From: a virus
Taxonomy: Duplodnaviria; Heunggongvirae; Uroviricota; Caudoviricetes
Strand: one strand, 5' to 3'
DNA: 56,493 nt
IMG/VR virus record: IMGVR_UViG_3300035208_001055
Span: 1 to 56,493 of that record
Below are positions 27,620 to 30,416 of the stretch, piece by piece. The notes below the pieces were generated by a model. That model ran no database searches, was not told the origin of the DNA, and worked only from the letters and a program-made list of their open reading frames with translations. A program made the position numbers and the translations under genes. How positions within the stretch are numbered: the first letter of the stretch is position 1; each line of letters starts with the position of its first letter.

Positions 27620-28190
27620 CGTTTGTTTCCTCTTTCAATCCATACGTTGAAGCACGTTTTGCACAATCAGGACATTGCCTAGTTTTCCACAGAGGGCAAA
27701 GATTCCTTGGATTGTGTCGGTATTCTTTGAAATGCGCGATTTCTGCATGTCGTCGTGCGGCAATAGCGTCTTTCTTTTTGACAAAACCGCCTAAATAGAG
27801 ACGTTTACCTGGAAGTTGTAGGCGAGCCACCCATTTTTGATCTTGACGATACCAAGTGACTCCCGTTTTGTTTGATGTGTTGTCCGACCGACGCTGTTTG
27901 TTGACGCAGTTTGCACTTCGTGTCGCAAGACGTATGTTTGATTTTCGGTTATCGCAACCGCAAGTATTTATATGGTCAAGTTCTTGAAACGATTCCCGAT
28001 GATAGTGGTGATAGATTTCATTGTGCATTTGAATTGTACGTTGGTCTCCATTTTTACGGTCGGTACGTCGTGCATATCCTGTAATAGCACCTTTGCGACG
28101 GTGATAGTGCCATTTCCATGCTGATAACCAATCGAAATCTTCATCATCAACGATGGCTACCCGGCCTTGGCTTAATTCAATCAATTTCAT
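27606..28190 (-). CDS. HNH homing endonuclease with AP2 DNA-binding domain
   Basis: AIVDDEDF, MH, LDHIN..DNRKSNIR, then SNKTGVTW...KWVARL...LYLGGF..KKDAIAARRHAE. Confidence 0.92.
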   Translation of the reverse strand: MKLIELSQGRVAIVDDEDFDWLSAWKWHYHRRKGAITGYARRTDRKNGDQRTIQMHNEIYHHYHRESFQELDHINTCGCDNRKSNIRLATRSANCVNKQRRSDNTSNKTGVTWYRQDQKWVARLQLPGKRLYLGGFVKKKDAIAARRHAEIAHFKEYRHNPRNLCPLWKTRQCPDCAKRASTYGLKEETNDECR

Positions 28191-29104
28191 CGAATCACGT
28201 CTCTGTACTTATCAATGATACCGGTAATTTCTCGCAATGCAAGAATCGGCGTCATTTCAGTCACGATGCAATTTTTCAAACTGCCGTAGTGCGTCTCAAG
28301 GCAATCAAGTAGTAGTTGCTTGATCTCGTCTTGTCGTGGTCCATACGGCAAGATTGTGCAGGCGTCGTAGACGGCTTCCAGAGTCTTTTCTTTTTGAGCA
28401 AAGAAAGCACGAATTTGCTCGGCAGTCCATTCTCCACGTCGGATCGACTTCAACTCTTCAGAATTGCGGCGGAGGTCAAGGTCGCCTGTCGTGAGAATCT
28501 GTTCGACTTCGTGCATGAGCCGCACGAGATGATAGGCAAACTTCACATCGAACCCATACTTCTCAACGGTGTCAGCGCGGTTACTGCCCGGTTGGGGCGA
28601 CTTGGTTTCCATTTTGGCAAGCTGCGAATAAGCGTAACCCTTGAAACGGTGCCAGCAACCCTTGTGCAGGAAGATGTGGCGCTTCTCGCGGACCATGTTG
28701 CCCACGATGGTCGTATGCAGGATGCACTCGGCCGGTAGGAACAGAGACGCCACCATGTTCGGGTTGTTCTCCATACACAGGTGGAAGTAGTGGACGATGT
28801 TGTAGATATTCAAGTCGTACTGCCGTCCCTTACCACCTTGGGCATCCTGATCGAAGAGATGGTGCTTCTGGTAGCAAGTAAACTCCTGCTGTTGCCGACC
28901 GAATCCGTGGATACGACCCGCGAGGTGCGGGAATACAATATCCTTTGGCGGGATACAGTATCCTATGATGTCGAAGTCGGATGTGTCAACGGCAACGCCG
29001 TAGGCATTGCTGCCTTGGACGCCCTCGAACATGATATTGCAGGGCAGCCAAGAGGGCGGCGTAATGAAACCACGATCTGTGAGTTGGGTTGTGACGCTAG
29101 GCAT
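28187..29104 (-). CDS. Pol-beta-superfamily nucleotidyltransferase (PF10127 / RlaP-like)
   Basis: GSNAYGVAVDTSDFDIIG (GS...DxD), MENNPN, GFDVKFAYHLVRL, LKSIRRGEW. Confidence 0.88.
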   Translation of the reverse strand: MPSVTTQLTDRGFITPPSWLPCNIMFEGVQGSNAYGVAVDTSDFDIIGYCIPPKDIVFPHLAGRIHGFGRQQQEFTCYQKHHLFDQDAQGGKGRQYDLNIYNIVHYFHLCMENNPNMVASLFLPAECILHTTIVGNMVREKRHIFLHKGCWHRFKGYAYSQLAKMETKSPQPGSNRADTVEKYGFDVKFAYHLVRLMHEVEQILTTGDLDLRRNSEELKSIRRGEWTAEQIRAFFAQKEKTLEAVYDACTILPYGPRQDEIKQLLLDCLETHYGSLKNCIVTEMTPILALREITGIIDKYRDVIR

Positions 29105-29433
29105 TATTATTGCTTCTCCGATAAAAGGCTCGCGGCATCTGTAGTTCCTATCAAGAAACGCCGTGGCAAATTGGCCCAGGGAGTCGTGCTAGGACAATGC
29201 CATCTCTTTCTGCCGCCCCATCGCAGAGGTCACTATTTTTCGCACCGATTTTATCGACAATCTTTAATTGATCTCCCGCAGTCAAAAATTCCAATCGCCC
29301 TGGGCTGTTTTCTAAGCACGTAGCTAATTGCCGCACCCATTGTTGTTCTTCTATTGTGAGCGGTTTGACTCTGAGTTTTGACTTCGAGACTATTTCAAGC
29401 ATGTTCGTCTGTTTCCGTTAAAAGTTCTTGCAG

Positions 29434-29534
29434 TGGCCGGGGCTGGATTCGCACCAGCATCCATGTGGTGCCTTTCGATCTCATCTCTGAGAGCGAAAGA
29501 AACCACACGGCTCTACTAATTGGCCTACCCGGCC
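29434..29534 (-). ncRNA. Anticodon-less tRNA-like RNA with elongated anticodon arm
   Basis: GGCCGGG/CCCGGCC-A acceptor, D-arm, GCTGG-TGCGAAT-CCAGC T-arm, 5-nt variable loop; anticodon stem TGTGG/CCACA encloses 34 nt forming CTTTCG-C-TCTCA-GAGA-TGAGA-T-CGAAAG. Confidence 0.85.
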
Positions 29535-29792
29535 GATGTTAGATGTCTTCCTCTCCGAGTGCGACACTCAGACAAAAACGAATGATTCGTAGTTCACGTT
29601 CCGTGAACAAGTAATCTCGTTGAACATCGTGGTCGTCCTTTTGCCGAATTACATCAAGGATGTATTTCGGCGGACTTCCGATGTCGTTAGCGACAATCTC
29701 GCGGACTTCGCTGATTGCGTCCAACACTTCTTGTGCGTTGCTCCCGGTTCCCCACACGGGGTCATAACTTTCTTCAACTGATCCTGGCATCA

Positions 29793-30416
29793 TTAGAATC
29801 CTTGTTCAAAAACATCGTCAATTGCGTTGCACACGTCGTTGTTGTATCGTTCTTGATCCAGTGCTTTGAAATCAAGTTCAAGTTCTCTCGCACAGTCCGC
29901 CAATAAGAGATCGGCCTGATGCCAGAGACCGAAGTGGCCTTCTCTCAGTGAAGAAAGTGCCAGCCACTTCTCGCGCACATACGTGCGTGCAAAGCCAGGG
30001 TCAAACTGAACTATGCTGGGCACGTTATCAATGATGTCCGCTAACTTGATTGTTTTCGCTCGCGGGTCGGCTTTCCGCAGGTGGGCACGCTCTTTGGCTT
30101 TTCGGGCCTCGCGGTTCCCATCGTCGTGCGTTGTGACATTGGTGACGCAAGACACGAGCATCGCCACGGTGTCACCGAACGTCACGCGAATATCGCGTAA
30201 CGTGTACTCGGTGTCTTCGACAACATCATGCAACCAAGCCGCAGCGACCGTTTCTGGGTCGTTGTTGGTGGCGAGAGCAACCCAATTAGCGACCGCCTTG
30301 GGGTGGACGATGTACGGGTCTCTATTGTACTTGCGAAATTGCCCCTTGTGGGCATCACTCGCAAAGTGGCACGCATCGAGAATGAGTAGACCAGGATTGG
30401 TTATTGGATTGGTCAT
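29793..30416 (-). CDS. RelA/SpoT-type HD hydrolase (Mesh1-like small alarmone hydrolase)
   Basis: AHKGQFRK...PYIVHP, AAWLHDVVEDT, VAMLV..VT, AKTIKLADIIDN. Confidence 0.92.
   Translation of the reverse strand: MTNPITNPGLLILDACHFASDAHKGQFRKYNRDPYIVHPKAVANWVALATNNDPETVAAAWLHDVVEDTEYTLRDIRVTFGDTVAMLVSCVTNVTTHDDGNREARKAKERAHLRKADPRAKTIKLADIIDNVPSIVQFDPGFARTYVREKWLALSSLREGHFGLWHQADLLLADCARELELDFKALDQERYNNDVCNAIDDVFEQGF

Follow-up and report, generated by a model that had tools for sequence, protein, structure and literature searches.

An anticodon-less tRNA-shaped RNA between genes for a small alarmone hydrolase and RlaP in an accessory region of an uncultivated phage

The window, i.e. the whole stretch of 56,493 nucleotides that was analysed, belongs to the 146-kb genome of an uncultivated phage. 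A preliminary description had reported five co-oriented elements within 2.2 kb of this DNA. All five were present at the coordinates reported there, on the minus strand, and the parts it had named (HD hydrolase, PF10127 transferase and tRNA-like RNA) had been correctly identified, as judged from profile matches, folding and a tRNA-detecting model. These elements, an adjoining gene and a distant RNA ligase gene are as follows:

29793-30416, minus strand: small alarmone hydrolase, 207 aa (PF13328 HD_4)
29539-29793, minus strand: 84-aa ORF (orf84), whose start overlaps the hydrolase stop (TAATG)
29435-29534, minus strand: anticodon-less tRNA-shaped RNA (fold, tRNA frame)
29151-29402, minus strand: 83-aa cassette ORF, replaced or missing in relatives
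28187-29104, minus strand: RlaP nucleotidyltransferase, 305 aa (PF10127, phrog_388)
27606-28190, minus strand: HNH homing-endonuclease-like gene (phrog_99, E 1.6e-29), overlapping the RlaP stop
54016-55116, minus strand: RNA ligase (PF09414 RNA_ligase and PF21189 OB-fold domain)

The shared orientation of the five elements is uninformative, since essentially every long ORF between ~20.8 and 56 kb of the window lies on the minus strand. Between the genes of the locus no promoter or terminator signals rose above shuffled background. Among GenBank phages, the 2.6-kb region matched at the DNA level only 209 nt of RlaP in Caulobacter jumbo phages.

The hydrolase, described earlier as Mesh1-like, proved to be a small alarmone hydrolase of the PaSpo/Mesh1 type. 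It matched PF13328 over residues 15-138 (66.5 bits against a cutoff of 27.2; E 2.9e-18), and like the other members of the PaSpo, SAH and Mesh1 group it is a protein of ~200 aa with a single, stand-alone HD_4 domain and without a synthetase domain. Identity to SSU5_099, the PaSpo protein of Salmonella phage SSU5, was 43% (E 8e-31), and the best sequence matches in the PDB were SpoT/Rel hydrolase domains, Mesh1, a (p)ppApp hydrolase and small alarmone hydrolases. Every catalytic motif was found, namely H38, the HD dyad H63-D64, the ED pair E67-D68, and D127 with N131 (KLAD..N); all of these except H38 were also seen to align with SpoT and PaSpo-SSU5. Homologues occurred in 315 phage records. 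By homology, the enzyme would most likely remove 3'-pyrophosphates from (p)ppGpp or (pp)pApp, and most likely also from tRNA CCA ends modified by toxSAS toxins, as reported for PaSpo-SSU5, which strips from tRNA the FaRel2 modification, a pyrophosphate placed by toxSAS (10.1101/2024.07.05.602228). HD-alarmone phosphodiesterases are likewise predicted to be counter-alarmone enzymes (PMC7824862). The present gene differs from the PaSpo group in being dispensable in the closest relative, and its substrate range is predicted by homology.

The PF10127 nucleotidyltransferase was confirmed as RlaP by its Pfam match (58.7 bits against a cutoff of 23; E 9e-16; residues 22-238), by its match to phrog_388 (E 1.3e-40) and by the Pol-beta nucleotidyltransferase motif G[SG]...DxD, read from the translation as G31-S32 ... 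D43-F-D45. Homologues with E <= 1e-40 numbered 4309, and a PDB sequence search with RlaP matched no solved structure. The characterised family members PfRlaP and PaRlaP of Pseudomonas add 1-2 NMP to RNA 3'-OH ends, require a free 3'-OH, do not act on 3'-phosphorylated ends, and are active in vitro without any RNA cofactor (PMC12776372). This activity is thus known from the family, and its use in the present phage is inferred. The background cited in the preliminary description holds.

The ORF at 54016-55116 is an RNA ligase, as had been proposed, and is 43% identical to the ligase of another RlaP locus (L004). In jumbo phages RlaP tracks RNA ligases (PMC7824862), and in other phage loci the recurrent neighbours of RlaP were the PF09414 ligase (adjacent in 9 loci), a CCA-adding enzyme (8 loci), Rnl1 and Thg1. 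The ligase is likely the working partner of RlaP. The phage resembles others of the RlaP family, which includes T4 NrdC.11, in its Pfam and PHROG matches, its GS...DxD motif and a ligase in the genome, but the ligase lies 25 kb from RlaP instead of adjacent to it, and neither Thg1 nor a CCA-adding enzyme was found in this genome, save a C-terminal remnant of Thg1. The HNH gene also occurs in the closest relative (L282, 75%) and in L293 (54%) and is absent next to other RlaP genes; it is a mobile neighbour outside any module.

Of the two small ORFs, orf84 is a real gene, because 18 of its 25 nucleotide differences from the closest relative, in which it is 95% identical, fall at codon position 3. 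Searches of Pfam and PHROG assigned it to no family and the protein Atlas gave no lead; homologues were found on two other phage contigs. In one of these (L020, 38%) the homologue sits between RlaP and an Rnl1-type RNA ligase that adjoins it, and in the other (L163, 54%) the surrounding genes are not RNA-repair genes. The 83-aa ORF is a swappable cassette. Its place is taken by an unrelated 87-aa ORF in the closest relative (L282/L298), and in a metagenome strain variant that lacks it only 16 nt separate the end of the RNA from the RlaP start codon. A search for viral homologues found none, the protein Atlas again gave no lead, and the match to phrog_1714 was weak (E 1.5e-4). Apart from the orf84 family in L020 and L163, the small ORFs upstream of RlaP in relatives were mutually unrelated. 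Both small ORFs would be cassette genes.

The preliminary description had called the RNA a tRNA mimic, which its sequence and fold bear out as a tRNA frame whose anticodon loop has been replaced. A 7-bp acceptor stem, U8, a D arm and a 5-bp T stem with a 7-nt T loop are present, and the discriminator is an A at 29434; CCA is not encoded. A 7-nt loop on a 5-bp stem is missing at the anticodon position, where a 34-nt hairpin stands in for it; the resulting rod has 6+7+5 bp, two 1x1 mismatches and a GAGA loop. The folding energy was -55 kcal/mol (z = -4.85), and none of 200 shuffled sequences folded as well. The T loop, UGCGAAU, has G at position 55, as do some ordinary phage tRNAs. ARAGORN made no call and Rfam gave no match (gathering threshold or E <= 10), RF00005 included; elsewhere in the sequence only chance snoRNA-like matches to Rfam occurred. 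The frame is truly tRNA-like, since a covariance model built from the RNA (R1) detected ~20 ordinary tRNAs with 20-44 bits. Phage tRNA frames with replaced anticodon arms were observed four times in this genome and also in L007, L014 and L021.

Several known classes were considered for this RNA. A Y RNA was rejected because the Ro60-binding motif is lacking, the acceptor stem is open and Rfam gave no match; the motif common to the five Y RNAs of this phage (GGGTTATC and the CCGA.../...CTTGCC helix) is absent. An intron-bearing tRNA was rejected from the fold, which contains neither a bulge-helix-bulge nor a remaining 7-nt loop; a group I intron, moreover, would be much longer than this insert. 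An antisense or seed role of the rod was dismissed, as complementarity elsewhere in the genome never exceeded 11 nt, and so was diversity-generating mutagenesis of the rod tip, as the changes were not adenine-specific. Among the closest known RNAs are YrlA, a tRNA-like Y RNA, and the predicted band-7-associated tRNA of RNA-repair operons (10.1101/312249), which are also anticodon-loop-less tRNA-shaped RNAs beside an RNA-repair gene. In YrlA, however, the acceptor stem is closed and the open end carries a Ro60-binding helix, whereas the present RNA has the usual topology of a tRNA, its acceptor stem open, and is not adjacent to Ro60 or Band_7. This genome has a Ro60 gene with tRNA-shaped Y RNAs as well as a tRNA that follows a Band_7 gene. 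With the tRNA-like domain and helix 2 of tmRNA the RNA shares the acceptor stem, the T arm and a long helix that starts out from where the anticodon stem would be, but it has C3-G70 instead of the alanine identity pair G3-U70, has a D stem, lacks an mRNA-like part and matched no tmRNA model. The phage's own tmRNA is encoded 4.7 kb upstream of the RNA. T4 species 1 and 2 (rnaC/rnaD) and eukaryotic mascRNA are tRNA-processing-dependent small RNAs without decoding function, and their architectures differ from that of the RNA described here.

Comparison with the closest relative revealed 2 differences in the 100 bases of the RNA (98% identity in L282/L298) versus 25 in 255 in the adjacent gene (90%; Fisher p = 0.013). 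Both changes in the RNA fall on one opposed internal mismatch, converting U.C to C.U. In a third strain variant the core of the RNA is kept and the tip of the rod is rewritten, and among the variants neither the D arm nor the proximal 13 bp of the rod varies. This pattern shows, at the level of sequence divergence, purifying selection on the RNA, which indicates that the RNA is functional. Covariation support for the rod is minimal, because there are just three close variants. The selection is confined to this phage lineage. The five nearest IMG/VR records yielded two chance matches inside coding sequence and nothing else, a D-loop plus T-arm pattern had 0 matches in viral contigs, and the at least 118 matches of the T arm alone in viral contigs were due to chance or to ordinary tRNAs with G55 in the T loop, with no rod RNA among them. 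A metagenome scan with the 5' half of the RNA found one copy of the L282 type and one chance match, and model R1 detected no further rod RNA in 1.65 Mb of RlaP and hydrolase loci and a complete relative (G006).

The preliminary description had gone further, proposing that the RNA, the hydrolase and the transferase act together as one undescribed anti-defence system, in which the RNA would decoy toxins that modify 3' ends, the hydrolase would strip the pyrophosphate, RlaP would remodel the end and the ligase would help; synteny across related phages had been suggested as a check. Of 80 viral RlaP loci, 0 carried the hydrolase at a distance of up to 5 kb, and RlaP was present in 1 of 80 hydrolase loci; with no co-occurrence in other genomes the proposal was not borne out. 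In the closest relative (L282/L298), whose RlaP is 89% identical, the RNA and RlaP are kept but the hydrolase is gone except for ~19 N-terminal codons, and a contig from a third sample skips the hydrolase at the same boundary (position 30360 of the window). The complete relative G006 (147 kb) carries RlaP at 15.6 kb on the plus strand and the hydrolase at ~51.3-51.9 kb on the minus strand, 35 kb apart, and has no rod RNA.

Other observations are in favour of a joint system. All parts belong to a single string of co-directional genes, the hydrolase has a homologue, PaSpo-SSU5, that counteracts FaRel2, and toxSAS toxins, which accept minihelices, read just the CCA end with the first five pairs of the acceptor stem (10.1101/2024.07.05.602228). 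Since nothing but these parts is needed, an anticodon-less RNA with an intact acceptor stem could be a toxSAS substrate. An unrelated phage (L117) moreover repeats the order hydrolase, small ORF (56 aa) and RlaP, but no structured RNA was found between its two enzyme genes (z = 0.27). The requirement of RlaP for a free 3'-OH is also hard to reconcile with such a system, and a single decoy species would face competition from the entire tRNA pool, against a toxin that, being an enzyme, turns over. A single system of this kind was therefore considered very improbable. Because a remnant of the hydrolase start is retained in L282, the ancestor of the lineage probably had hydrolase, orf84, RNA, cassette and RlaP in a row, and owing to this ancestral row and the adjacency in L117 a loose functional link between the genes may exist.

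The proximity of the RNA to RlaP was considered separately. In three strain variants the RNA keeps its place directly upstream of RlaP despite changes in the intervening cassette, its end being 16 nt away from the start codon in one of them, and a tRNA or tRNA-like gene was present within 300 nt in 8/79 RlaP loci versus 1/80 hydrolase loci (Fisher p = 0.018). As such genes are commoner by RlaP than by the hydrolase, these counts hint that the adjacency may not be accidental. RlaP and the ligase might then use the RNA as a partner or cofactor, by analogy with YrlA-Ro60 and with the predicted pair of band-7-associated tRNA and RtcB. Non-canonical tRNA-like elements follow RlaP in L007, L014 and L021, the Ro60 and Band_7 arrangements of the present genome are in line with such a role, and a contribution of tRNA-like RNAs to RNA ligation has been put forward (10.1101/312249). 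Rod RNA was, however, absent beside RlaP in all relatives at <=84% identity, and the RlaP-adjacent elements elsewhere were heterogeneous, shared no common rod and had folds no different from shuffles. Moreover, the characterised RlaP enzymes need no RNA in vitro, and the Ro60-binding motif of this phage's Y RNAs is lacking. A cofactor role was accordingly regarded as quite improbable. In a wider trans-acting role the RNA, matured and CCA-tailed, would display an authentic acceptor/T-arm half and either sequester a host factor attacking or reading the 3' ends of tRNA or help RlaP and the ligase as a repair cofactor; it would then be a new counterpart, of ordinary topology, to YrlA and the band-7-associated tRNA. 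Such a role appears unlikely as well, if less so. Phage tRNA frames in which the anticodon arm is replaced may form a wider, undescribed class, with this RNA as one member.

Alternatively, the RNA could lack a trans function and be a tRNA-derived RNase P/RNase Z processing signal at which the polycistronic transcript is cut ahead of the RlaP cistron, or a one-time tRNA gene retained for just that purpose. It is embedded among the ORFs of a long co-directional string in which no promoter or terminator was detected above background, and in these loci tRNA genes of phages often lie among ORFs. Recombination breakpoints lie exactly at its 3' end, and the part that RNase P requires, the acceptor/T-arm half, is invariant, unlike the rod tip, which differs freely from strain to strain. 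Invariance nevertheless extends to the D arm and to the proximal 13 bp of the rod, and a double change has kept the mismatch pyrimidine-pyrimidine, none of which a mere cleavage signal would need; relatives, furthermore, manage without the RNA. A pure processing signal was for these reasons judged rather doubtful.

The 2.2-kb stretch is probably a patch of a fast-changing accessory region, and not a dedicated system, in which independently acting genes for the protection of translation and RNA lie beside a lineage-specific RNA. The hydrolase and RlaP are known phage enzymes that are found separately in related phages. On this accessory-patch reading, the RNA would be a tRNA derivative in which a rod of ~18 bp has replaced the anticodon loop, and which would keep the features needed by RNase P, 3' trimming and CCA addition. 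It would probably be cut out of a leftward polycistronic transcript and probably accumulate as a stable species of ~100 nt, tRNA-like from the acceptor/T-arm side and unable to decode. Our favoured guess is a role in binding, or competing for, a putative protein whose recognition of tRNA is confined to the acceptor/T-arm half or the 3' end.

Since both protein families have already been catalogued in large phages, the proposed module adds nothing new to counter-defence biology, and the unusual part of the locus is the RNA alone. As the rod replaces the anticodon loop, decoding is impossible; with the frame kept by selection, the RNA must serve another tRNA-recognising process. The locus also illustrates that in mosaic accessory regions gene neighbourhood is weak evidence for a functional system. 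If such RNAs were common in phages, they would form a new layer in the conflict over tRNA, beside spare phage tRNAs, tRNA repair enzymes and Y RNAs.

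The hydrolase, RlaP and the three elements between them were all found where the preliminary description had placed them, by coordinates, profile matches and fold, and its part names and cited background were likewise sound (PF13328, PF10127 and PF09414 matches; the PaSpo and RlaP papers). These elements and the neighbouring features of the window are:

27606-28190, minus: HNH homing-endonuclease-like gene, overlapping the RlaP stop codon by 4 nt
28187-29104, minus: RlaP, 305 aa; PF10127 E 9e-16, phrog_388 E 1e-40
29151-29402, minus: 83-aa ORF, on one side of the rod RNA
29435-29534, minus: rod RNA, 100 nt, between orf84 and the 83-aa ORF
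29539-29793, minus: orf84, an 84-aa ORF, on the other side of the rod RNA
29793-30416, minus: hydrolase, 207 aa; PF13328 HD_4 E 2.9e-18
34221-34576, minus: phage tmRNA, next after tRNA-Glu(UUC)
35060-35134, minus: tRNA-Glu(UUC), directly after the SPFH/Band_7 gene
35164-36519, minus: SPFH/Band_7 protein; PF01145 E 2e-5
54016-55116: RNA ligase; PF09414 and PHA02142 OB domain

The virus record is 146,090 bp long, the window being its first 56.5 kb, and window DNA was found in contigs from landfill and groundwater metagenome runs. Beyond ~20.8 kb, nearly all long ORFs of the window lie on the minus strand, so that co-orientation of the five elements is a property of the whole arm and not specific to them. 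The order Band_7 gene, tRNA-Glu(UUC) and tmRNA matches the band-7-associated tRNA layout predicted for RNA-repair operons (cited in 10.1101/312249). The HNH gene adjoined RlaP in some relatives only, consistent with a mosaic region. An 85-aa ORF at 31184-31441 (minus) shared 53% identity with the Thg1-like proteins found next to RlaP in L287, L289 and L293, over their 70 C-terminal residues; it looks like a Thg1 remnant or a freed C-terminal piece, since no full-length Thg1 was found in the phage genome.

The hydrolase aligned with the hydrolase domains of SpoT and Rel, with Mesh1, a (p)ppApp hydrolase and bacterial small alarmone hydrolases. SSU5_099 of Salmonella phage SSU5 was 43% identical to it (E 8e-31), and the hydrolase retains the HD, ED and KLAD..N motifs. 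Homologues of this type occurred in 315 GenBank phage records. PaSpo of phage SSU5 has been reported to counter the toxSAS FaRel2 by stripping the tRNA modification that FaRel2 installs (10.1101/2024.07.05.602228), and HD-alarmone phosphodiesterases of jumbo phages had earlier been predicted to be counter-alarmone enzymes (PMC7824862). The RlaP enzymes PfRlaP and PaRlaP extend RNA 3'-OH ends by one or two NMP, preferring the 5' half of cleaved tRNA, and are required for over-damaged tRNA to regain function; T4 NrdC.11 belongs to the same family (PMC12776372). Both proteins fall within known phage families as ordinary members, and two of the parts are plausibly counter-defence genes that act on RNA 3' ends.

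The preliminary description had combined the hydrolase, a decoy RNA and RlaP into one undescribed system against toxins modifying tRNA 3' ends, and had named synteny as the decisive check. Co-occurrence supported this at no evolutionary distance, and the module failed among viral contigs, within the family and in the closest relatives. In viral contigs, none of 80 RlaP loci (26-78% identity) had a hydrolase within 5 kb, and RlaP was near the hydrolase at 1/80 hydrolase loci (L117), where a 56-aa ORF separates the two genes and no structured RNA was found between them (z = 0.27). Clustering of all RlaP neighbours instead yielded the PF09414 RNA ligase at 9 loci, a CCA-adding enzyme immediately upstream at 8 loci and, in L020, an Rnl1-type ligase; Thg1 also accompanies RlaP in nearer relatives. 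In the complete 147-kb relative G006, the plus strand carries RlaP at 15.6 kb (70% identity) and the minus strand the hydrolase at ~51.3-51.9 kb (53% identity); R1, the covariance model built from the rod RNA, detected no rod RNA over this genome, its sole match being tRNA-sized.

In the closest relative (L282/L298), RlaP was 89% identical and the flanks aligned at 94% as far as window position 30360. There, 566 nt of the hydrolase are gone and about 19 N-terminal codons remain; the alignment then resumes with orf84 and the rod RNA, an unrelated 87-aa ORF replaces the 83-aa ORF, and homology returns just before the RlaP start. Contigs from other samples showed a deletion-type joint, 29757 to 30360, with the same left boundary, and in an other-sample variant lacking the 83-aa ORF the rod RNA ended 16 nt ahead of the RlaP start codon. 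Their loss or replacement in these sequences shows that neither the hydrolase nor the 83-aa ORF is indispensable in nature, while the rod RNA and RlaP stay neighbours in a narrow lineage.

In the fold of the rod RNA, the acceptor stem has 7 bp and the T arm 5 bp closing a 7-nt loop; the long rod is built of 6+7+5 bp, interrupted by two 1x1 mismatches and capped by a GAGA loop (-55 kcal/mol, z = -4.85; 0/200 shuffles equally good). A D stem of 3 bp, G10-G11-C12 pairing with G-C-C, was readable from the sequence. No ARAGORN call and no Rfam match, even at E <= 10, were obtained, due to the 34-nt hairpin standing in for the anticodon loop. As R1 scored about 20 ordinary tRNAs of other phage loci at 20-44 bits, the frame is truly tRNA-like. 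An encoded CCA is absent, as in the phage's ordinary tRNAs. Unlike the phage's five Y RNAs beside Ro60, the rod RNA lacks their common motif, and unlike tmRNA it lacks the G3-U70 pair; no meaningful complementarity to the rod was found elsewhere in the genome. Its T loop (29447-29453) reads UGCGAAU, with G for U at position 55. The same loop occurs at many loci in ordinary phage tRNAs with D loops devoid of the usual GG, which suggests an elbow variant that co-varies within a class of phage tRNAs.

Searches of relatives, pattern scans of viral contigs, a metagenome scan and R1 revealed no rod RNA homologues outside this lineage. Compared with L282, the rod RNA showed 2 differences in 100 nt against 25/255 in adjacent orf84 (Fisher p = 0.013). 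Of the latter, 18/25 were at third codon positions, indicating that orf84 is a real gene. Both rod RNA changes were the opposed bases of one internal mismatch (U.C to C.U), a swap that keeps the pyrimidine-pyrimidine mismatch and makes no pair. Judged from its sequence, the rod RNA is not decaying. In a third strain variant from a metagenome, whose reconstruction may be incomplete as it rests on the best-supported differences only, position 29505 was the only change listed in the acceptor, D and T parts and proximal rod, and about 10 positions were changed in the rod tip (29479-29492; last 5 bp and GAGA loop), giving a poorer tip fold. The tip changes were not adenine-specific; the tip is a local hypervariable patch.

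Several other tRNA frames, in which the anticodon arm is missing, shrunken or expanded, were likewise uncalled by ARAGORN:

G000 (the phage's own record, outside the window) 61208-61325 and 122409-122477
L021 2026-2100 and 5961-6055
L014 6133-6274
L007 5926-6063

The phage genome alone has four, including a Y-RNA hybrid (61529-61664), and these frames may belong to a wider class of phage tRNA-like RNAs that do not decode. Several phage contigs also carry, a few kb from hydrolase genes, conserved ~100-nt RNAs in which the acceptor stem has 8 bp, CCA is encoded and a long extra arm is present; these may be tRNAs of a selenocysteine-like or other class II-like type:

L110 1502-1598
L122 6745-6846
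L127 8796-8897
L128 7878-7979
L141 323-423

The rod RNA is probably transcribed within a polycistronic RNA, since no promoter or terminator signal in the gene string exceeded shuffled background. RNase P, 3' trimming enzymes and the CCA-adding enzyme recognise the acceptor/T-arm stack, T loop and discriminator. As the rod RNA presents these, with a stack of 12 bp, it would be released as a stable ~100-nt RNA, a tRNA top-half mimic unable to decode. Selection on the D arm, proximal rod and mismatch speaks for a function beyond that of a cleavage signal. The two best-fitting roles are ligand or competitor of a factor reading acceptor ends, and partner RNA of repair enzymes, as has been proposed for YrlA and the band-7-associated tRNA (10.1101/312249).

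In favour of a link between the rod RNA and RlaP, a tRNA or tRNA-like gene lay within 300 nt of RlaP at 8/79 loci, compared with 1/80 for the hydrolase (p = 0.018), although overall tRNA density around the hydrolase was at least equal, and odd tRNA-like elements follow RlaP in L007, L014 and L021. However, the RlaP-adjacent elements differ from one another and their folds are no better than those of shuffles, the rod RNA is absent from relatives with RlaP at <=84% identity, and in L283 an ordinary tRNA-Ile and, by sequence reading, a tmRNA 3' end occupy its position. ARAGORN also called tmRNA upstream of RlaP in L285 and L286. The tmRNA regions, with RlaP 0.3-2.3 kb downstream, are:

L283 ~2900-3222 (read by eye from 3' end and tag; ARAGORN calls tRNA-Ile only)
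L285 803-1158
L286 836-1192

The tag in L283 and L285 is that of the window's tmRNA (AKPSFAMAA); L286 has AKPCFAMAA. The tmRNA-tRNA-RlaP neighbourhood predates the insertions of hydrolase and rod RNA. The rod RNA is a real, selected, lineage-specific element, and the sole part of the five worth bench work.
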